Source: an uncultured Thermoleophilaceae bacterium (GTDB lineage Bacteria; Actinomycetota; Thermoleophilia; Solirubrobacterales; Thermoleophilaceae). From it: a DNA stretch of 64,000 nt. The stretch lies in NCBI GenBank assembly GCA_963828225.1, contig CAWHDX010000006.1, forward strand, positions 125,318-189,317, read 5' to 3'. Of the stretch, positions 2,827 to 55,236 are shown one piece after another. Position numbers and translations under genes: made by a program. Position 1 is the first letter of the stretch. Every line of letters begins with the position of its first letter. The notes under the pieces are model-generated. The model searched no databases. It was not told the DNA's origin and worked only from the letters and a program-made list of their open reading frames with translations.

Positions 2827-3721
2827 TAGGCGCGAGCCCGCAGGGTCGCGTAGGGCGGGCGCTCGACGAGCTCCACCTCGATCAGCCTCCCGTCGGCGGT
2901 CCGCAGCGGCGGCACGCCGTCGTCGAGCAGGCGCCCCTCGGCGTGCAGGCGATCGAGGATCACGCGCAGCACCGTGTACGCCATCGGCGCGAGCGCCGTC
3001 AGCGGCTGGTGGTGGTTGCGGCGCTCCTCCAGGTCCACCTGCGCGATGCCCTCGCGTCCCGCCCAGCGCGTCGCGGACGTGCAGCAGCATCGAGGTCTCG
3101 ACCGCGTAGCCGGTGGCGAACGGCAGCTCGTCGAGCAGCTCGCGCCGAGCGGCGACCTCGCCGGCCAGCGGCTGAGCCAGCGCGGCGAGCTCGGGATAGA
3201 AGGCCGACAGCAGCGGCCGTGCGGTCAGCTCGGTCACGCGGCCGCCGTCTGCCGGCCGCGCCTCGCCCTCGACGGCCGCGAACGGACGGCGGAAGTGGCC
3301 CTTCACGAAGCGCGACCTCGTCCTCGGCGCAGATCAGCGGGCCCAGCAGCCCGGTGGCGAAGTGGGACGAGAAGTCGCGCGTGTCGGAGTCGAGGTAGAC
3401 GATCAGCTCGCCGCGGGCCGCGGACAGAGCGCGCCACATCGCGTCGCCCTTCCCCAGCACCGCGCCGAAGCCGGGCAGCAGCGCGGCTTCCTGGTGGACC
3501 TCGGCGCCGAGCGAGGCGGCGATCTCGGCGGTCCCGTCGGCGGATTGCGCGTCGACCACGAGCACCTGGTCGATCAGCCCGTCGAGCGCGAGCAGGCGCT
3601 CCACGATCGGCCCGATCGTGTCGGCCACGGCGCGCGTGGGCAGCACCACCGTGATCGGCTCGCGCTTGCGCTCGAGCAGCAGCTCGAGCGGGAACTGCGA
3701 GTGATGGAGGGAGCGGATCAA
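2826..3721 (-). pseudogene. gpgS: glucosyl-3-phosphoglycerate synthase (GT81), frame broken near 3048 and 3307
   Basis: Three collinear pieces in three frames. They read [13 protein letters not shown]...VVLPTR...VVDAQSADGT...YLDSD, then VKGHFRRPF...GGRVTELTARPLL...PFATGYAVE, then IAQVDLEERRNHHQPL...ATLRARA*. Each junction is one extra base. Confidence 0.75.
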
Positions 3722-30471: not shown

Positions 30472-32706
<2,235 letters not shown>

Positions 32707-32756
32707 TCAAGATCGGAGATATCACCTCGGGCGTAGGTTGGCAGGACGGCCGCGTC

Positions 32757-32787
32757 AGGGGGGTGGGGAAGACCACCCCTCTGGGTG
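32757..32787 (+). promoter_or_regulatory. conserved G-arm/C-arm hairpin element, copy a
   Basis: AGGGGGGTGGGGAAGACCACCCCTCTGGGTG. The CCACCCC arm ends 46 nt before ATG 32825. Confidence 0.5.
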
Positions 32788-32824
32788 CTACTCCCGGCCG
32801 CCCGCGGCGAGGAGGGTGGACCAT

Positions 32825-34465
32825 ATGCCGATGCGCGCCGTCCCCCTCGTCCTGGCCACCATCCTGCTCGCGATCGTCGCGGCGCCGGGCGCGGCCGCTC
32901 CCGGCGACCTGGATACGTCCTTCGACGGCGACGGCGTGCGGACCGTCGACTGGGGCGGTGAGGCCGACGCAGCTCGGGACGTGCTGGTCCAGCCGGACGG
33001 CAAGATCGTGGTGGTGGGCACCGGCTTCGCCCCGCCCGTGGACATGGGAATCACTCGCCTCGCTCCCGACGGGAGCTTGGACAACGGCTTCAACGCCGAC
33101 GGCACCGCGTCGGTCGCGCTGGGGGACGTCGAGAACGGCAGCGCCGTGGCCATGGCGCCGGACGACAAGATCGTGACGGTAGGCCGGACGGCCGCGGGGC
33201 AGCGCGGGCTGGTCGCGCGCCATCTCCCGGACGGGACGCCGGACAACACCTTCGGGGTCGCCGGATCGATGACCCTGGAGTACGGCGGCGACGACAGCCT
33301 GCAGGACGTGGTGGTCCAGCCTGACAGCAAGATCGTGACGGTCGGCCAGGGCGGCGCCACGAACAACCTCGTCGTCACCCGCCTGATTGCGACGGGGCTG
33401 CCGGACGGGGCCTTCAACAGCGGCGCCGGCTCGGTGTCGTTCGACTTCGGCGCGATCGAAACCGGACAGGCGGTCGTCCTGCAGCCCGACGGCAAGATCC
33501 TCGCCGCCGGCAACACCAGCGCGGGCATGCAAGCGGCGGTCATCGTGCGCCTGAACGCGAACGGCACGCCGGACGCGAGCTTCGACGGGGACGGCCGCCT
33601 GACGGTCCCGGGCCCGGCGGGGAACGTCGTGCGGGACATGATGCTCCAGCCCGACGGCAAGATCGTGCTTGCGGGGTTCGTCAGCACGGACTTCACCGGG
33701 GGCGGCGTGTTTCGTGTGACTCGGCTCAACTCGGACGGGACGCTCGACAGCGGGTTCGGCACGAACGGCGCCGTCAGCTTCGCATTCAGCGATGAGGGCT
33801 TCGCGACCGCGGCAGCCCTGCTCGCCAACGGCAAGATCGTCATCACCGGCATGAACGGAAACCAGGCGGCGGTCGCGCGACTGCAGCCGGGCGGGACCCT
33901 CGACACCACCTTCGGGGCTGGCGGCAAGGCGAACGTCCCCGGGACCTTCGTCTTCCCGGAGGGGCTGGCGCTCCAGGCCAACGGGCGGATCATCCTCGCC
34001 GGCCGAAACCCGTTGGGAACACCGTGGGACGTGGCCATCGCCCGGATCGACAACGATTCGCCGGCCGCGGGCGGGGGCCCGGGCGGTGGCGGACCCGGTG
34101 GCGGACCCGGCGGCGGCGGCAAGTCGGTGCCGCGCTGCGCGGGCAAGCGCGCCACCATCGTCGGCTCGAACCGCTCAGACCGGCTCAAGGGCACGCGCCG
34201 CGCCGACGTGATCGTCGCCCTCGGCGGCAACGACCGGATCGCCGCCGGGCGCGGCAACGACGTCATCTGCGCCGGCAACGGCAACGACCGGATCGACGGC
34301 GGCTCCGGAAACGATCGCCTGTCCGGCGGCTCCGGAAACGACCGCCTCGCCGGCGGCTCCGGCAAGGACCGCCTGTCCGGCGAGACCGGCAAGGACAAGC
34401 TGATCGGCGGCTCGGGGCGCGACAAGCTCAGCGGCGGCCCGGGGCGCGACAGCCAGCAGCAGTAG
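32825..34465 (+). CDS. secreted delta-60-type beta-propeller repeat protein with Gly/Pro linker and C-terminal RTX (GGxGxDxLx) block
   Basis: ATG is preceded by GGAGGG. Signal peptide MPMRAVPLVLATILLAIVAAPGAAA. About eight repeats of the D.SF...G...QPDGKIV..G type, then GGNDRIAAGRGNDVI...GGSGNDRLSGGSGNDRLAGGSGKDRLS...SQQQ*. Confidence 0.8.
   Translation: MPMRAVPLVLATILLAIVAAPGAAAPGDLDTSFDGDGVRTVDWGGEADAARDVLVQPDGKIVVVGTGFAPPVDMGITRLAPDGSLDNGFNADGTASVALGDVENGSAVAMAPDDKIVTVGRTAAGQRGLVARHLPDGTPDNTFGVAGSMTLEYGGDDSLQDVVVQPDSKIVTVGQGGATNNLVVTRLIATGLPDGAFNSGAGSVSFDFGAIETGQAVVLQPDGKILAAGNTSAGMQAAVIVRLNANGTPDASFDGDGRLTVPGPAGNVVRDMMLQPDGKIVLAGFVSTDFTGGGVFRVTRLNSDGTLDSGFGTNGAVSFAFSDEGFATAAALLANGKIVITGMNGNQAAVARLQPGGTLDTTFGAGGKANVPGTFVFPEGLALQANGRIILAGRNPLGTPWDVAIARIDNDSPAAGGGPGGGGPGGGPGGGGKSVPRCAGKRATIVGSNRSDRLKGTRRADVIVALGGNDRIAAGRGNDVICAGNGNDRIDGGSGNDRLSGGSGNDRLAGGSGKDRLSGETGKDKLIGGSGRDKLSGGPGRDSQQQ
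34128..34465 (+). repeat. RTX-module direct repeat, copy 1 (pairs with 36860-37196)
   Basis: The 3' end of the gene is collinear with the 3' end of gene 35814..37196. I see only two differences in the last about 110 nt, and similarity stops at the TAG. Confidence 0.8.
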
Positions 34466-34474
34466 CAGGTCGGG

Positions 34475-34528
34475 GACAGCAGCCCGCCCATCACCGTGCC
34501 CCGGTGGTTCGCGTGCCGGCCCTCGGCG
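34475..34528 (-). pseudogene. fragment of a PaaI/hotdog thioesterase gene (paralogous to 38608..39000)
   Basis: GACAGCAGCCCGCCCATCACCGTGCCCCGGTGGTTCGCGTGCCGGCCCTCGGCG aligns with 38846-38899. By hand the first 20 nt are identical and about 84 percent overall. It encodes LAEGRHANHRGTVMGGLLS versus LAEERHANRRGTVMGGLLS. Confidence 0.7.
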
Positions 34529-34532
34529 AGTC

Positions 34533-34562
34533 GAGGGGTGCGAGATACCACCCCTCTGGGGG
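34533..34562 (+). promoter_or_regulatory. conserved G-arm/C-arm hairpin element, copy b
   Basis: GAGGGGTGCGAGATACCACCCCTCTGGGGG with a perfect 8-bp stem. The CCACCCC arm ends 47 nt before ATG 34601 and 35 nt before ATG 34589. Confidence 0.5.
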
Positions 34563-34588
34563 TTAGCGGCGCCCCCGACTTGCGGCGT

Positions 34589-35491
34589 ATGTTCGCGACC
34601 ATGCGCATTCCCCGTTCCGTCGCCCTGGTCGGCGCCGTCCTGGGCCTTGCCGTCTCGGCCGGCCCGGCCTCTGCCGCAGGCCACATCACCTACAGCGTCG
34701 GGGAGGAGGACCTGCTCCTGCGCGTGGCGGCTCGTGCCGGAGCGACGCCGCAGGACGTTTCCGCCGGGCTCGACCGCCGCTTTCCCGGCGGCGGCGACCA
34801 GTTCCTCAACCAGTCGCCCGACGGCAAGGCGCTCGTCCTCCAGAGCGAGCGCTTCGGCTGCGGCGGCTACCCGTGCCTCGCAGTCGTGTCGAGCAACCTC
34901 AGGGCCGGCAAGGCCGTGCGTGGCGGCACGGTGCACGTCGAGGGCTTCTCGGCGGTCGGTAACGGCGGGCGCGTGGTGGTCTATCCGGCGCGGTCGAGCG
35001 ACGACCGGATCGACCTGTTCGTCAGCCGCAAGACGGGCGGTGCGTGGAGCAAGCCGCGCAACGTGACCAAGGGGTCACCGATAAAGGTCCACACCCATCC
35101 GGCCATCTCGGAGGACTCGAAGCGCGTGCTGCACGACTGCGGCGACGCGGGCGACCCCTCCATGGGCACGATTTCGGTGTGCGAGTCGCGCCTCGACGGC
35201 AAGGGAACGCGGATCCGGATGCGCCCGTCCGACGGCCGCAAACCGCAGGACCCGGCCTTCGGCCCGGGCAGCCTTCACCACGGGGACTACCTCGGGCGCG
35301 GCAAGGGGCTCGTGTTCGAATCGCAGTGGTGCTGCGAGGGCGAGTCCATCTGGTGGCTACCCAAGGGGAAGCGCGCGCCCAAGCACGTGCGCAGCGCCGG
35401 CGGCAACATCGTCGCGCCGTGCGGCCTGCCTGACGGCCGCGTGGTGACCCTCGACCTGAGCCGGCCGCGGGCGGGGGCGTCCACGAGCTGA
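34589..35491 (+). CDS. secreted protein, PD40/TolB-like beta-propeller features
   Basis: Signal peptide (MFAT)MRIPRSVALVGAVLGLAVSAGPASA. Motifs SPDGKALVL and DLFVSRKTGGAWSKP. Alternative start at 34601. Confidence 0.65.
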   Translation: MFATMRIPRSVALVGAVLGLAVSAGPASAAGHITYSVGEEDLLLRVAARAGATPQDVSAGLDRRFPGGGDQFLNQSPDGKALVLQSERFGCGGYPCLAVVSSNLRAGKAVRGGTVHVEGFSAVGNGGRVVVYPARSSDDRIDLFVSRKTGGAWSKPRNVTKGSPIKVHTHPAISEDSKRVLHDCGDAGDPSMGTISVCESRLDGKGTRIRMRPSDGRKPQDPAFGPGSLHHGDYLGRGKGLVFESQWCCEGESIWWLPKGKRAPKHVRSAGGNIVAPCGLPDGRVVTLDLSRPRAGASTS

Positions 35492-35749
35492 TGATCACCT
35501 CGCCGACGTCAAGGAAGAGGACCTTCGTGCTGCCGCCGGGAATCGACGTGAACGACAGCGGGATCGGCTGCGGGGCCTAGCCGGCGTCTCCCTTCCAGCG
35601 CCTGGCCTCTCGCTGCACGGTCCCGTACCGGTCGGGGCACCGCGCCCAGGGGAGCGTCGAGATCCGTATCGGTCGGCCTTGTCGGCGAGTTTGGGCTGCA
35701 CTCCTGTGGCCACCGTGCTCGGGGAGCCCGTGATCGCGGGCTAGAAGGC

Positions 35750-35778
35750 GGGGTGGAGAAGTCCACCCCTCAGGGGGG
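35750..35778 (+). promoter_or_regulatory. conserved G-arm/C-arm hairpin element, copy c
   Basis: GGGGTGGAGAAGTCCACCCCTCAGGGGGG. The CCACCCC arm ends 45 nt before ATG 35814. Confidence 0.5.
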
Positions 35779-35813
35779 TTTCGTCGCCGCGCCTGGTGCA
35801 CGACGCTCATCCC

Positions 35814-37196
35814 ATGCCCAGGGCCACCCTCCGCCGAGTATCGCTGACCGTGATCGCGCTGACCTGCGCCGGGGCGCCCGCCGTCCAGGCGGCGCCCGGC
35901 GGCGACGCCTTCGTCGAGGAGACGACCGTCTCGGTGCCGGCCATGGAGTCGGCATCGGCGGCCGCCGCTTGCCCGGACGGATCGCGCGTCGTGGGAGGCG
36001 GCGTGGACGCGATCGCCGGCTTCCTCTCACTCGACCGGTTCCCGGACTACGTCGTGCAGATGAGCGGGCCTGTCGACGACACCGGCTCCTGGGCGAACAC
36101 GGAGGACGGTGAGGTCGCGCGCCAGTGGCTCGCCTACTGGCGCAACTCGTCCACGCAGACCCTGGACTTCAAGGTCTTCGCGCTCTGCTCGCGCAGCTCC
36201 GACGCCACGATCGAGACGACGCGGCGCGACGGCGTGGCGAGCAGGACCGCCGCGCCCCTTGCGACGACGTGCCCATCGGGATCGCGCGTGGTGGGCGGCG
36301 GACTCGGGACGAACGGCCCGATGCCCACGGGGGAGGGAGGCAACACCTACGTGCTGCAGATGAGCGGACCCGTGGACGACACGGGCACGTTCATCTCCAC
36401 CGAGGACGGGGACGTCGCCCCCAGTTGGTGGACCTACGCGTTGAACCAATGGCTCGACCCGGTCGCGTACAAGGTCTTCGCGCTCTGCTCGCGCCAATCC
36501 GACGCCACCATCGAGGCGACCGCGTTCGAGCTGCCCACGGCGCTCTCGTTCGCGGGGGCCGCCGCCTGCCCCGCCGGGAAGCGGGTGCTGGGCGGCGGGG
36601 TCGGCTCGCACGGCCCCGCGCCGGGCGGAATGAACCTGAACTACATCGTCCAAGCGGCCGGCCCCGAGGACGAGACGGACTCCAGCCGAAACACCGTCGA
36701 CGGAGACGTCGCGCGACGCTTCTACGGCTACGTCGACAACCGCTCCGGGGCCACGCAGACATTCAAGGTGCTCGCGCTGTGCGCAACCGATGACATGCAG
36801 GCGGGCGGCGGCGGGCCGGGAGGCGGGCCGGGTGGCGGCGGGCCGGGAGGTGGCGACGGACCGCGCTGCGGCGGCAAGGTCGCCACGATCGTCGGCAGCA
36901 ACCGCTCGGAGCGCATCTCCGGCACCCGGCGGGCCGACGTGATCGTGGCGCTCGGCGGCAACGACCGCATCAAGGGCGGCCGCGGCAACGACGTCATCTG
37001 CGCCGGCAACGGCAACGACCGGATCGACGGCGGCAGCGGCAACGACCGCCTCGCCGGCGGCTCCGGAAACGACCGCCTCGCCGGCGGGTCCGGCAAGGAC
37101 CGCCTGTCCGGCCAGACCGGCAAGGACAAGCTGATCGGCGGCTCGGGGCGCGACAAGCTCAGCGGCGGCCCGGGGCGCGACAGCCAGCAGCAGTAG
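35814..37196 (+). CDS. secreted protein: three tandem Cys-bracketed repeats of about 100 aa, Gly/Pro linker, C-terminal RTX block
   Basis: Signal peptide MPRATLRRVSLTVIALTCAGAPAVQA. Each repeat runs CP.GSRVVGGG ... QMSGPVDDTG ... DG.VA..W ... FKVFALCSR. DNA period is exactly 300 nt between 36171 and 36471. The RTX tail is nearly identical to that of 32825..34465. Confidence 0.8.
   Translation: MPRATLRRVSLTVIALTCAGAPAVQAAPGGDAFVEETTVSVPAMESASAAAACPDGSRVVGGGVDAIAGFLSLDRFPDYVVQMSGPVDDTGSWANTEDGEVARQWLAYWRNSSTQTLDFKVFALCSRSSDATIETTRRDGVASRTAAPLATTCPSGSRVVGGGLGTNGPMPTGEGGNTYVLQMSGPVDDTGTFISTEDGDVAPSWWTYALNQWLDPVAYKVFALCSRQSDATIEATAFELPTALSFAGAAACPAGKRVLGGGVGSHGPAPGGMNLNYIVQAAGPEDETDSSRNTVDGDVARRFYGYVDNRSGATQTFKVLALCATDDMQAGGGGPGGGPGGGGPGGGDGPRCGGKVATIVGSNRSERISGTRRADVIVALGGNDRIKGGRGNDVICAGNGNDRIDGGSGNDRLAGGSGNDRLAGGSGKDRLSGQTGKDKLIGGSGRDKLSGGPGRDSQQQ
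36860..37196 (+). repeat. RTX-module direct repeat, copy 2 (pairs with 34128-34465)
   Basis: See copy 1. Both end ...GGSGRDKLSGGPGRDSQQQ*. Confidence 0.8.
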
Positions 37197-38371: not shown

Positions 38372-38444
38372 TGGCGAGGGCCGGAATCGAACCGGCGACA
38401 CCACGATTTTCAGTCGTGTGCTCTACCAACTGAGCTACCTCGCC
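38372..38444 (-). tRNA. tRNA-Phe (anticodon GAA)
   Basis: The reverse complement GGCGAGGTAGCTCAGTTGGTAGAGCACACGACTGAAAATCGTGGTGTCGCCGGTTCGATTCCGGCCCTCGCCA folds as a 73-nt cloverleaf. CCA is not encoded. Confidence 0.95.
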
Positions 38445-40865: not shown

Positions 40866-41520
40866 ACCGGGATGGCGGCGCCGCTGGTCGGCGCGGAGTC
40901 GTCGGAGACGAGGTGGCGCACCACCTTGGCGATCTCCTCGGGCTTGACCCACTTCGAGAAGTCGGCGTCGGGCTGCGCCTCGCGGTTGGGCGGCGTGTCG
41001 ATCACGCTCGGCAGGATCGCGTTGCAGCGGATGCCGTCGCCCTTGTACTCGGCGTCGAGCGCCTGGATCAGGGCGAGCAGCGCGGCCTTGCCCGCGATGT
41101 ACGCGGCCGCGCCCGGGAACGGCCGCAGCGCGGCGCGCGCGGACACCCCGACGAACGCGCCGCCGCCGCGCTCGATCAGCCGCGGCATCGCCGCGCGCGC
41201 GAGCAGGAAGGCCGGCTTCACGTTGAGTCTGCAGCAGCGCGTCGAACTGCTCCGGGTCGGTCTCGTGCACGCGCGGGCCCTGGGCGTAGCCGCCGACCAG
41301 GTTCACGACCGCCTCGAGCTCCGCGACGCCCGCGACGGCGGCCTGCGTCGGCGTCCGCGTCGAACAGGTCCGCCTCGACCAGCTCGACGTCCTCGGACGC
41401 CAGCCGCTCGCGCTCGCGCTCGGCCACCCAGGTGGCCGTGACCGCGTAGCCGGAGGCGAGCAGCTCGCGCACCACGGCGGTGCCGAGAAAGCCCGTTCCC
41501 CCGGCGACGAGCACCGTCAT
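40850..41520 (-). pseudogene. SDR-family NAD(P)-dependent oxidoreductase, frame breaks near 41229 and 41343
   Basis: Three pieces: MTVLVAGGTGFLGTAVV..., then AAVAGVAELEAVVNLVGGYAQGP...FDALLQ, then LNVKPAFLLARAAMPRL...YIAGKAAL... Confidence 0.8.
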
Positions 41521-41590
41521 GAGGCCGGGGGGCGAGTCCATTCAGCGGCAGGCTATCCCGTCCGGGTTCGGTTCTACCGTGGCCTTCCAG

Positions 41591-42582
41591 ATGGAGCAGC
41601 CCACGCTCACCCCGGCGAAGTGCTTCGTGCGCGACCTCGTGGACGGCCAGGAGGTCGACGCGATCTTCGTCGTGCGGGCCCGCAACCGCCGCCAGAAGCG
41701 CAACGGCGAGGCCTTCCTGAAGCTCCAGCTCGGGGACGTCACGGGCTCGGTGGAAGGGCGTCGTCTGGGACGGCGTCGACGAGCTCGACGGCGCTCTGCC
41801 AGGGCGGCGCCGTCGTGCGCGTGCTGGGTCGCTACTCGGTCGACGAGCGCTACGGCGCCGGCATCACGATCCGGCGCATGCGCGCCGCGATCGAGGGCGA
41901 GTACCAGCTCGCCGACCTCGCCGAGTGCGCCGCCGGTTCCCTACGGGCAGATGGCGGCCGACCTGACGTCGCTCGTCGAGACGGTCCAGCGCCCGCACCT
42001 GCGCGAGCTGCTCGACCGGCTGGTCGACCCGGCCACGCCGATCGGGCGGGCCTACCACGAGGCGCCGGCGGCCAAGTACTACCACCAGGCCTACCGCCAC
42101 GGGCTGCTCGAGCACTGCCTGTCGGTGGCCCAGGGCGTGAGCGCGCTGGCCGCGACCTTCCCCGGGATCGACCGCGACGTCGCGGTCTCCGGCGCGCTGC
42201 TGCACGACATCGGCAAGGTCGAGACCTACCGCTCGCGCAACGGCGCGATCGAGCTCACCGACGCCGGCAAGCTGCTCGGCGAGATCCCGCTCGGCTACTA
42301 CCGCGTCCGGCGCACGATCGAGCAGATCGAGGGCTTCCCGCGCCCCGACGCCGAGGCGCTGCTCCACATCATCCTCAGCCACCACGGCAAGCTCGAGCAC
42401 GGCAGCCCGGTGTGCCCTGCACGCGCGAGGCCACGCTGGTGCACTTCATCGACAACCTGGGCGGCAACCTGGGCAGCTTCGACCGCATCGAGAAGGCGCT
42501 CGCCGAGGGCGCCAGCTGGTCGGACTTCGACCGCGGCCTGGCGACCGCGGCCTACTTCGGCGCGCGCGAGCAGGCCGCTTAG
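41591..42582 (+). pseudogene. OB-fold plus HD-domain 3'-5' exoribonuclease (YhaM-like), at least four frame breaks
   Basis: Pieces in alternating frames. They read FVRDLVDGQEVDAIFVV..., GVVWDGVDELDGAL, QGGAVVRVLGRYSV..., PVPYGQMAADL...LLHDIGKVE...ILSHHGKLEHGSPV, and PCTREATLVHFIDNLGG... Confidence 0.8.
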
Positions 42583-42649
42583 CTCGCAAATTGCGGGGCC
42601 ACGCGGGGGCGTGACGCCCGCGGTTTCCCGCTTATCTTCGGGACCGCCC

Positions 42650-44687
42650 ATGGCCAAGGACACCGAGAAGCTCATCCGTCAGCTGTCGCTGATCTCGTTC
42701 CTGATGGCGGAGCGCCGGCCGGTGTCCGCGCTCGAGATCAAGCAGGACGTCGAGGGCTACTCGCAGATGAACGACGAGGCCTTCGCGCGGCGCTTCTACG
42801 CCGACCGCGCGGAGCTCGACTCGCTCGGCATCCACCTCAAGGTCGACAAGCCCGCCGAGGGCTACTACGAGGCCGAGAACTACTCGCTGCCGCCCGAGAA
42901 CTTCTACCTCCCGGCGATCGAGTTCACCGACGAGGAGCTGGGCGCGCTGCGCATGTCGCTGTCGCTGCTCGACGGCGAGTTCGCCTACGCCGAGCCGCTG
43001 CGGCTCGCGCTGCAGCAGCTCTCCTGGGGCAAGCCGTCGCCGCTCGACGCGCCCGAGGAGCTGTCGGTGGCGCTGGCCGTCACCGCCGGCGCCGGCGGGC
43101 GCGACCTGTCGCAGCGCCTGTCGAAGGTCGAGACCGCGATCTTCCGGCGCAAGACGATCGTGTTCGACTACTACACGATCGGCCGCGACACGGTGGAGCC
43201 GCGCAAGGTCGACCCCTACCACCTGCTCTACAAGGGCGGGCAGTTCTACCTGATCGGCCACTCGCACGAGCGCGACGACACGCGCGTGTTCCGCGTCTCG
43301 CGCATCCGCGGCAAGGTCGGCTACTCGTCCAAGGCCGAGCACGACTTCAACCGCCCCGAGGACTTCGACCCGCGCGACTACGCGATCCGCACCGACTGGC
43401 AGCTGGGCGAGCCGATCGGGCGCGCCCGCATCTGGCTGAGCGACCGCATCGACTGGCTGGCGCTGCGCCACTTCGGCCACGCCGGCGAGGTGACCGAGGT
43501 CGACGACGGCGTCATCTTCGAGACCGACTACGCCAACGCGCGCCAGATGGTCTCCTGGGTGCTCGGCCTCGGCCGAGCACGCGCGCGTCGAGGGCCCGCC
43601 CGAGCTGGTGGAGGAGGCGCGCGCGCGGCTCGAGCTGATCGCCGAGCGCCACGCCAACCCGCCGGAGCTCGCCGCCGGCGCGCCGCCGGTCGTGGAGGAG
43701 GTCGAGGAGGACGACGACCGCGAGAGCTCGCCGATCCGCCCCGAGCGCTTCGCCCGGCTGGTCACGCTCGCCGGCATCCTGATCGACACCGCGCGCGAGG
43801 GCCGCAAGCTCGAGCTGTCCGAGCTGTGCGAGCGCCTCCAGAGTCAGCGAGCAGGAGCTGCGCCAGGACGTCGACGTGCTCAACGTCGTCAACTTCGGCG
43901 GCGGCTCGTACGTGCTCTACGCGGAGGTGCAGGGCGACCAGATCGAGGTCGACCCCGAGCCCTACGGCGACAACTTCGCGCGCCCGGCGCGGCTGCTGCC
44001 GCTCGAGGCAAAGGCGCTGGTGGCGGCGATCGACCTGATCGGCGAGCACCTGCCCGAGGGGTCGCTGCAACAGCGCGCGCCAGAAGATCGTCGACGCGCT
44101 CGGCCAGGACCCCGCGCAGGAGGGCCTCCAGATCACCACCGCCAAGGGCGACGACTCGGAGATCGCCCGGGTCGTCAGCGGCGCGATCGCGGCGCACCGG
44201 ATGCTCGAGATCGAGCACTACAAGGAGGAGCTCGACGAGTTCACCAAGCGCCGCATCGAGCCCTACAAGCTGATGAACGGCCAGGAGGGCTGGTACGTGC
44301 ACGCGTGGGATCCCGACAAGGACGACACGCGCTCGTTCCGGCTCGACCGGATCCGCTCGGCGACCGTCCTCGACGAGAGCTTCGAGCCGCGGCCGGGGAT
44401 CGAGCCCGACGTCCACGGCTGGCCGCGCACCGGCGAGGTCGCCGACGCCCGGCTGCGCCCGCGTCTGGATGGCGCCCGAGCGCGCGCGCTGGGCGCGCGA
44501 GGACAAGCGCGTCGTGTCAGAGCTGGCCGACGGCGCGGTGATCGTCGAGCTGCCCTACGCCGGGCACCGCTACCTGGCGCGCGAGCTGCTCAAGGAGGCC
44601 GGCGACGCGGTCGTGCTCGAGCCCGAGGACGCCCGCCAGGCGGTGCTGGAAGCCGCCGAGGTGCTGGCGGGCGCCGTCAAGGGCTAG
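42650..44687 (+). pseudogene. fused PafB/PafC-like regulator (two HTH-WYL-WCX units in one reading unit), about four frame breaks
   Basis: First unit is intact (MAKDTEKLIRQLSLISFL..., IVFDYYTIGRD..YHLLYKGGQFYLIGH). Sense then hops frames near 43573, 43841, 44068 and 44458, through a second HTH, a second WYL (IEPYKLMNGQEGWYVHAWD) and ...VLAGAVKG*. I saw no stop between the two units in the reconstructed frames. Confidence 0.75.
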
Positions 44688-54493: not shown

Positions 54494-55236
54494 ATGCACA
54501 GGACGTTGCAGGCGGGAGCGACGCTCGTCGCCATCGCCCTGCTGCCCACAGCCGGCGCGGCCGCCGCGCCGTACGCCAGCCGGACGCTCGCCAAGGGAAC
54601 CTCCGGCGGCGACGTGGAGAAGCTTCAGCGCTACCTCGACGACGCCGGCTACGAGACGGCGCCGGACGGCGAGTTCGGCCCCGCCACGGCGCGCAGCGTG
54701 CGCAGCTTCGAGGCGGCTGAGCAGCGGTCGGTGGACGGGCGCGCCACGCGCTCCGACCAGCGCCTGGTCCGCACGCGCGCCGACGAGGTCGCAGCCGCGA
54801 CCCGGTCGCCGAGACCGAGCCGGCCGGCGAGGAGGCCTACATCGGCGATGACGGCCTCGCGGTCGCGCCGGCGTCCGCGCCCGAAGAGGTCCAGGAGATC
54901 ATCGAGGCCGGCAACCGGATCGCCGCCAAGCCGTACAGGTACGGCGGCGGCCACGGCCGCTTCCGCGACTCCGGCTACGACTGCTCGGGGTCGGTCTCCT
55001 TCGCGCTTCACGGCGCCGACCTGCTCGACACGCCGCTCGACTCCACCGGCTTCATGCGCTGGGGCGACCGCGGCCGGGGCGAGTGGGTCTCGATCTACGC
55101 GAACGCCGGCCACGCGTACATGACGGTGGCCGGGCTGCGCTTCGACACGAGTGCGCGCAAGGCGTCCGGCAACCGCTGGACGGAGCAGACGCGGTCCGCG
55201 CGCGGGTACCGCGTCCGACACCCGGAGGGACTCTGA
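54494..55236 (+). pseudogene. secreted peptidoglycan-binding-domain protein with NlpC/P60-like (C40) domain, frame break near 54787
   Basis: Signal peptide, then PG_binding-like GGDVEKLQRYLDDAGYETAPDGEFGPATARSVRSFE. After about 54787 the next frame reads ...AKPYRYGGGHGRFRDSGYDCSGSVSFAL...GHAYMTVAGLRFDTS... Confidence 0.75.

Follow-up and report, generated by a model that had tools for sequence, protein, structure and literature searches.

A stretch of 64,000 nucleotides from an uncultured Thermoleophilaceae bacterium (GenBank assembly GCA_963828225.1, contig CAWHDX010000006.1, forward-strand positions 125,318 to 189,317; referred to here, at its full length, as the window) contains three consecutive genes for secreted proteins, each preceded by the same short inverted repeat with a G-rich tail. 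The three copies of this element, designated a, b and c, were verified at 32757-32787, 34533-34562 and 35750-35778, all on the plus strand, as given in a preliminary description of this DNA that had presented them as a conserved hairpin, and they are the only copies in the window. They share the pattern GGGGTG-N7-CCACCCC-TC(T/A)GGG, located at 32760-32787, 34535-34562 and 35750-35777, and the locus is composed of the following features.

katG, 30472-32673, minus strand: peroxidase gene, divergent from copy a.

Copy a, 32760-32787, plus strand: G-arm GGGGTGG (32760-32766), loop GGAAGA (32767-32772), C-arm CCACCCC (32773-32779) and tail TCTGGGTG (32780-32787); 57.9 bits with the sequence model R2.

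Gene a, 32825-34465, plus strand: secreted protein of 546 residues with a signal peptide, a delta-60-repeat (DUF5122) beta-propeller and a C-terminal RTX domain.

Copy b, 34535-34562, plus strand: G-arm GGGGTGC (34535-34541), loop GAGATA, C-arm CCACCCC (34548-34554) and tail TCTGGGGG (34555-34562); 38.4 bits with R2.

Gene b, 34601-35491, plus strand: secreted protein of 296 residues with a signal peptide, family unassigned; 3' end probably frameshifted.

Copy c, 35750-35777, plus strand: G-arm GGGGTGG (35750-35756), loop AGAAGT, C-arm CCACCCC (35763-35769) and tail TCAGGGGG (35770-35777); 46.2 bits with R2.

Gene c, 35814-37196, plus strand: secreted protein with three internal repeats and a C-terminal RTX domain.

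The arms are GGGGTGG/CCACCCC in copies a and c and GGGGTGC/CCACCCC in copy b, and the loop is 6 nt long in each. In copy a the C-arm and tail also form CACCC-N4-GGGTG. The core 13-mer CCACCCCTCWGGG has three exact matches in the window, all within copies a-c, with every other match requiring two mismatches; with the filters of the R2 search switched off, the next best match in the window after the three copies scores 9.9 bits, in DNA with a G+C content of 72%. The distance from the end of the C-arm to the start codon, reported earlier as nearly constant, is borne out by the coordinates: 46 nt in copy a (32779 to 32825), 47 nt in copy b (34554 to 34601) and 45 nt in copy c (35769 to 35814). All three genes begin with Sec-type signal peptides, and the gene a orthologues P0002 and P0004 start at the same methionine.

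The element also occurs in other genomes. A scan with a strict pattern, using one genome per species, found matches in five Thermoleophilaceae metagenome-assembled genomes (MAGs) and in Patulibacter, the rest being chance matches in unrelated phyla, and a scan of metagenome contigs added seven further soil contigs with the element. A scan with the 15-mer CCACCCCTCTGGGGG returned almost pure noise among the matches listed and gave a second copy in locus L015. In the relatives, the orientation with respect to the downstream gene is kept, the start codon lies 44-49 nt past the C-arm and the downstream product has a signal peptide at its start and is often an orthologue or paralogue of the gene a product ('...AAPGDLDTSFDGDG'). 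The matches in L013 (Bacterium HR23) and in other genomes outside the Thermoleophilia were rejected as chance, as they lie inside coding sequence and lack the -10 hexamer at 24 nt that is described below. One metagenome contig, L145, contains tandem units at 3280-3400 ending ...CCTCTGGGGGTCAAGGCCA; this is a different repeat that has only the core CTCTGGGGG in common with the motif.

Alignment of 26 motif instances from about 12 independent gene families, anchored on the motif rather than on the ATG, shows that the 8-nt tail is followed in 26 of 26 by a hexamer NANNNT, at 24 nt in 20 instances and at 25 nt in six, against a background of 0.018 per position. The Patulibacter locus (L012) was kept out of these statistics, since it has a perfect motif but no clean NANNNT at 24-25 nt. 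The consensus of the hexamer is [G/T]ANNNT, with A2 and T6 present in all 26 sequences, and the forms found include GAGGCT, GAGGGT, TAGGGT, TATGTT, GACGCT, GAAGCT, GAGCCT, GATGGT, GATGTT and GATGCT. Nineteen of the start codons follow the hexamer after 6-11 nt and six after 15-22 nt; in L003 the gap is 37 nt, and a separate Shine-Dalgarno (SD) sequence, AGGAGGA, stands next to the ATG, 30 nt further on. The hexamer thus goes with the motif, from which it keeps a nearly constant distance, rather than with the start codon, to which the distance varies. The corresponding features of the window are as follows.

Predicted -10 hexamer a, GAGGGT, 32812-32817, plus strand: 24 nt past the tail and 7 nt before ATG 32825.

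Predicted -10 hexamer b, TATGTT, 34588-34593, plus strand: 25 nt past the tail and 7 nt before ATG 34601; no SD sequence.

Predicted -10 hexamer c, GACGCT, 35802-35807, plus strand: 24 nt past the tail and 6 nt before ATG 35814; no SD sequence.

Weak -35-like block a, CTACTC, 32788-32793, plus strand: 18 nt upstream of the -10 hexamer and placed from the -10 spacing.

The three hexamers begin 13, 13 and 12 nt upstream of the ATGs of genes a, b and c, respectively. Leaderless genes, which account for more than 20% of actinobacterial genes, are marked according to published work by a TANNNT box some 12 nt ahead of the start codon (PMC3160421). The [G/T]ANNNT hexamer would thus be the actinobacterial -10 box of a sigma-A-type promoter, and genes a, b and c would be leaderless, with the start codon 6-7 nt after the -10 box. 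Compared with GAGGGT, hexamers b and c retain only A2 and T6 and have no SD character; the block in copy a that had been taken for an SD sequence complementary to the C-arm is better read as the -10 hexamer, and no SD sequence is found at copies b and c. With a conserved -10 box 24-25 nt downstream of the motif, transcription is predicted to start downstream of the element, a position that the preliminary description had named as arguing against an RNA role. The motif would then span about -38 to -65 relative to the start, upstream of the core promoter and outside the transcript, and promoter geometry together with leaderless starts would account for the fixed distance of 45-47 nt between motif and ATG. 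Immediately after the G-run there is a semi-conserved block, nT[G/A]TCn, with a nearly invariant T2, an 18-nt spacing to the -10 box and a weak match to TTGACA. A generic consensus promoter scan found no promoter at these sites, which, with the weak -35 block, is consistent with an activator-dependent promoter.

A candidate for the activator is encoded next to the element in several of the loci. The DNA-pattern matches adjoin, in L003, L006 and L144 and also in L156 and L157, there beside gene a orthologues, the gene of a conserved 223-residue protein with an N-terminal FHA domain and a C-terminal LuxR/GerE helix-turn-helix (HTH) domain (Pfam). This linkage was examined in the reverse direction with loci fetched through the regulator protein alone (23 loci of species-representative genomes, 148 kb). 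In these loci 14 of the 15 R2 matches with E<1e-4 are located within about 125 nt of the ends of the regulator gene and in the expected orientation, and they cover 11 of the 12 loci with a regulator of at least 68% identity. Three long contigs, likewise fetched through the protein, have the motif divergently upstream of the regulator gene and/or right after its stop codon, ahead of a gene for an FHA-only protein of 96-110 residues. A conserved cluster (L159 10001-14413, L161 10001-14501 and L162 10001-14341) comprises the FHA-GerE regulator gene, the FHA-only gene (96-110 residues) and one or two convergent Ser/Thr kinase genes. The genes downstream of the element encode signal-peptide proteins, many of them gene a paralogues, or are the regulator and small FHA genes themselves. 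The orthologues of the regulator gene (five) have CACAAT, GACAAT, CAGAAT or GATGAT 6-8 nt before the start codon, which suggests the same promoter style at another gene of the lineage. A census of actinobacterial LuxR proteins includes the FHA+LuxR architecture but assigns no function to it (PMC3466318).

Two further arrangements of motif and regulator were observed. The copy at L006 7591-7638 (= L164 2933-2980), on the divergent side of the regulator gene, carries two arm changes without compensation (GGGGCGG ... CCACCGC) and points at the end of a convergent gene rather than at a start codon; it may be decaying or purely autoregulatory. In Patulibacter minatonensis (L012 3860-4389) the perfect motif precedes a GerE-only gene (LuxR-type HTH, about 145 residues) that is convergent with the gene of an FHA-GerE homologue of 44% identity.

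The conservation pattern fits a DNA site. Across the alignment the element can be written as GGGNTGG, 6 nt, CCACCCC, T(C/G/A)T and GG(G/T)(G/T)G, that is, as a composite of related half-sites of the size read by HTH dimers, with GGGNTGG-N6-CCACCCC (7-6-7) forming one inverted repeat and the C-arm and tail forming others. Tail variants such as TCTGGGTG and TGTGGTGG give a second palindrome, CACCC-N4-GGGTG or CCACC-N5-GGTGG, centred near -43/-44. Conservation is highest in the C-arm and the first bases of the tail, the G-arm is the less conserved of the two arms and the loop is the least conserved part overall. Among the seven stem pairs of the 26 sequences there are no compensatory changes and 19 unpaired cells, with a covariation score of 0.000 (0.007 for shuffles), so that every departure in an arm breaks pairing. 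These uncompensated variants include GGGCTGG/CCACCCC, found before the small FHA gene in at least six orthologous loci, GGGGTAG or TGGGTAC with CCACCCC in the closest orthologues of promoter a, and GGGATGG with CCAGCCC or CTAGCCC. The element is most likely a protein-recognised double-stranded DNA site built from related half-sites, and not an RNA structure.

We consider, with a probability of roughly two in three, that the element is the operator or activator site through which the FHA-LuxR regulator controls a regulon of secreted delta-60/RTX proteins. An operator for one regulator was among the candidates put forward previously, and it gains support from the promoter geometry and from the tight and repeated linkage to the FHA-LuxR gene. 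Several observations weigh against this assignment. The first base of the -10 box is mostly G (GANNNT) and not T; the GGAGG of copy a overlaps its hexamer; and one promoter family (L015p, L146a and L137a) has an SD-like GGAGGAG between hexamer and ATG, which fits a longer leader better. The GGGGTGG/CCACCCC repeat has its centre near -55, where activators do not classically bind, and only the C-arm/tail repeat lies near -43. With read-through from upstream genes the hairpin would form in RNA, with a stable fold. Regulator homologues of at most 64% identity, from Paraconexibacter and Solirubrobacteraceae, have no detectable motif nearby. Finally, tblastn finds no regulator homologue in the 64-kb window, so the regulator would have to act in trans from elsewhere on the contig, which measures about 762 kb. 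In L159 a gene a orthologue is the divergent neighbour of the regulator gene, with furA-katG 8 kb away, and the window resembles that neighbourhood in rearranged form, minus the regulator.

An unlikely explanation, although the best of the alternatives, is that RNA polymerase reads the element directly, as an extended -35 or UP-like element, through its alpha subunit or with an alternative sigma factor, in which case the FHA-LuxR gene would simply belong to the same sigma regulon. The element does abut the -35 position at a fixed distance from the -10 box, and the -10 box, unusually uniform (GAGGCT or GAGGGT in 15 of 26) and with G as its first base, might be that of a sigma factor other than the housekeeping one. 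The loops, often GGAAC or GGAAG, also resemble the -35 elements of extracytoplasmic function (ECF) sigma factors. However, at -38 to -65 the conserved bases are too distant to form the -35 hexamer of that -10 box, the GGAAC-like loop is the least conserved part, and the symmetry, an inverted repeat with three half-sites, is one that typifies sites of dimeric HTH proteins. None of the loci examined has a sigma or anti-sigma gene linked to the element, whereas a gene for a DNA-binding regulator is linked to it. A specific ECF promoter with the loop GGAAC as -35 and CTGTC as -10 was rejected, given the low conservation of the loop and the better -10 box 24 nt further downstream. A resemblance to CRP-like (GTG-N8-CAC) and CsoR-like (CCCC-N3-GGGG) operators was also considered; no gene for such a regulator is linked.

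A regulatory RNA in a shared 5' untranslated region (UTR), another of the earlier candidates, is very unlikely. The hairpin would stand in a leader of about 65 nt, and translation or stability would depend on whether the C-arm pairs with the G-arm, the G-run or an SD-like block. The orientation is indeed fixed relative to the gene, in many copies the C-arm with TCT could pair with blocks of the GAGAGG/GGAGGGTGG type, a good SD sequence (GGAGGAG) follows the putative -10 box in one family, and the hairpin would be stable if transcribed; 80-nt segments have predicted folding energies of -36 to -45 kcal/mol, a stability that is trivial for any GC-rich inverted repeat. The alternative CCCC-TCT-GGGG helix proposed in the preliminary description can be drawn on paper, but the predicted fold differs from it. 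Against a leader RNA stand the lack of compensatory changes and the conserved variants that break pairing. In copies b and c and in the small-FHA-gene group (TATGTT, GACGCT and GATGTT) only A-N3-T is left of the SD-like block, which keeps its 24-25 nt to the motif rather than a distance to the ATG, and L003 has its own SD sequence 30 nt further on. Many copies have no space in front of them for a promoter: in L015 the motif overlaps the stop codon of the gene before it, in L016, L147, L139 and L141 it lies 13-16 nt past such a codon, and several divergent copies are 13-29 nt from a start codon, the distance to that of the regulator being 21-29 nt in most loci and about 60 nt in L168/L170. A pseudoknot between the purine loop and the T-rich block past the G-run seemed possible in three or four copies and was discarded as inconsistent across the 26 sequences. 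Rfam 15 gives no match to the region at the gathering threshold and only noise at E<=10 (for example mir-7558, 20 bits against a gathering score of 80). With no covariation, a predicted start downstream of the element, no room for an upstream promoter and no Rfam match, the RNA interpretation is unsupported.

It is highly improbable that the element is a terminator or a 3'-end-stabilizing hairpin of the upstream gene, possibly with an insulating function as well. Many copies do begin 0-16 nt past the stop codon of a co-directional gene and the stem is GC-rich, but no copy has a U-tract (the lack of a T-tail noted earlier holds for all three copies in the window, and a terminator scan made no call at any of these sites). 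Copy a, for which the earlier account of katG as divergent is correct, and all regulator-divergent copies lack a co-directional upstream gene; conservation is at the level of sequence, with uncompensated arm changes, and the spacing to the downstream -10 box is fixed. A repeat of the repetitive extragenic palindromic (REP) or miniature inverted-repeat transposable element (MITE) type, or the attC-like end of a mobile cassette, was suggested by three consecutive genes behind the same short inverted repeat and by the near-identical 3' domains of genes a and c, but its likelihood is negligible: there are three copies in 64 kb, the copies in about 470 kb of related loci (325 kb + 148 kb) are at promoter positions only and in one orientation, with none of the scattered, randomly oriented copies that the preliminary description had associated with a generic repeat, the element is retained at orthologous promoters across genera, no integrase or transposase gene is found among the neighbouring genes, and a 20-bp repeat without GTTRRRY-type cores differs from attC sites of 57-141 bp with RYYYAAC/GTTRRRY.

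For the putative operator and its FHA-LuxR regulator, we infer the transcription start, the identity of the binding protein, the sign of regulation and the control by kinases, which together would give the following scheme. Kinase signalling, read through the FHA domain or domains, would control binding of the regulator or its oligomerization on the half-sites; the co-encoded FHA-only protein and the neighbouring kinases point to phosphothreonine control. A GerE-type dimer or higher oligomer across the three half-sites, next to the weak -35 block, would recruit RNA polymerase and activate operons whose products are exported, among them secreted delta-60/RTX proteins. Sites centred near -42 are common for LuxR-type activators, and the C-arm/tail palindrome near -43/-44 would be in position for activation beside -35. 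At the regulator's own divergent promoter the site would overlap the -35/spacer region and could lead to autoregulation. Extending this scheme, we tentatively propose, at slightly less than even odds, a previously undescribed module of Thermoleophilaceae and other Solirubrobacterales that would combine a phosphothreonine-gated FHA-GerE activator, an FHA-only partner, Ser/Thr kinases, a three-half-site operator and a dedicated secretome of delta-60-propeller/RTX proteins that is switched on at leaderless promoters.

The putative operator resembles lux-box, NarL, DosR and GerE operators, which are short GC-containing inverted repeats of about 20 bp bound by dimeric GerE-type HTH proteins, often with the regulator gene divergent from its target and the site in the shared intergenic region. 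Operators of the lux-box type are often beside or overlap a weak -35 element, in a class-II-like position near -42. The site described here, known from sequence, differs in its half-site GGGNTGG, in its three-half-site layout (7-6-7 plus a third site spaced by 3 nt) and in the FHA input domain of the regulator, which replaces a receiver or autoinducer-binding domain. We know of no described box with a GGGNTGG half-site or with this layout.

Among FHA-containing regulators, EspM of Mycobacterium is an FHA factor with a C-terminal HTH whose gene is transcribed divergently from its target whiB6; it binds the region between the two and controls genes tied to protein export, and its FHA domain has been suggested to control oligomerization on DNA (PMC7002343). 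The regulator likewise has an N-terminal FHA domain joined to a C-terminal DNA-binding HTH, a divergent target and export-linked genes. In contrast, the match to EspM is weak and at the level of the FHA domain only (NF052403, 25.7 bits against a cutoff of 550), and EspM has 363 residues, another HTH region, a repressive action on whiB6 and an unrelated DNA site. For the FHA domain of the regulator, PDB entry 2fez ('regulatory protein embR') is among the best matches. EmbR of M. tuberculosis, with a DNA-binding domain of the SARP/OmpR type, is controlled by the kinase PknH through its FHA domain and is thus a transcription factor gated by a Ser/Thr kinase, as is proposed for the regulator; it differs in having a winged helix and a bacterial transcriptional activation domain instead of GerE, a reversed domain order and other targets and sites.

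The promoters themselves resemble leaderless sigma-A promoters (PMC3160421) in having [T/G]ANNNT 12-13 nt before the ATG in a, b and c and no SD sequence in b and c; they differ in the first base, mostly G, and in the strongly conserved upstream element. Small riboswitches and other 5'-UTR hairpins such as preQ1-I are similar in size (about 30 nt), in the combination of a hairpin with a conserved single-stranded tail and in their fixed orientation upstream of genes, but the element lacks covariation, matches no Rfam family and has no supported pseudoknot, and the predicted start lies downstream.

The genes around the element have features of their own. The Gly-rich linker and RTX C-terminus of genes a and c (34060-34465 and 36790-37196) share about 88% DNA identity over about 400 nt and the N-terminal parts are unrelated, which suggests domain shuffling or gene conversion among secreted paralogues. 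The gene a family is large, with several paralogues per genome; a protein scan with gene a as query gave only RTX-domain matches, in unrelated MAGs. Within 35440-35580, gene b stops at TGA 35491 and another frame, crossing a G-run, stays open for about 30 further codons as far as TAG 35580. A frameshift at this 3' end is probable, either by an assembly error or in a pseudogene, in which case the apparent 260-nt gap before copy c would shrink. On the other side of copy a, katG starts at GTG 32673 with the SD sequence AAGGA, and the palindrome CTTGTTGCGCTCAAG (CTTG-N7-CAAG, 32697-32711) between this start and copy a is a candidate operator of a peroxide-stress regulator. A FUR-family gene (furA) precedes katG in L159, whereas katG of the window has no adjacent furA. 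Further downstream are a tRNA gene (38372-38444, minus strand, 75.9 bits), the gene of a large HD + WYL + WCX domain protein (41450-44038, plus strand), near which ferritin, acid phosphatase, EcsC and WCX genes are syntenic with L157, and a cyclic di-AMP riboswitch (ydaO/yuaA leader, RF00379; 54333-54481, plus strand, 82.6 bits) upstream of an open reading frame that starts near 54721.

For the Thermoleophilia, Actinomycetota that abound in soil, experimentally defined promoters and regulons are essentially lacking. The element is probably a transcription-factor operator with its regulon, tied to an uncharacterised class of FHA-LuxR regulators in a lineage where none has been defined, and not a new riboswitch. 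If this is correct, the FHA+LuxR architecture, so far known only from domain censuses, would have its first defined regulon and operator. The result would yield a promoter architecture (operator, weak -35, [G/T]ANNNT -10 and leaderless start), a candidate regulator with a testable site and a predicted regulon of secreted beta-propeller/RTX proteins under Ser/Thr-kinase/FHA control. In organisms with leaderless genes a promoter-proximal inverted repeat can mimic a 5'-UTR riboregulator, and recognition of this should help in the triage of such elements in high-GC genomes.

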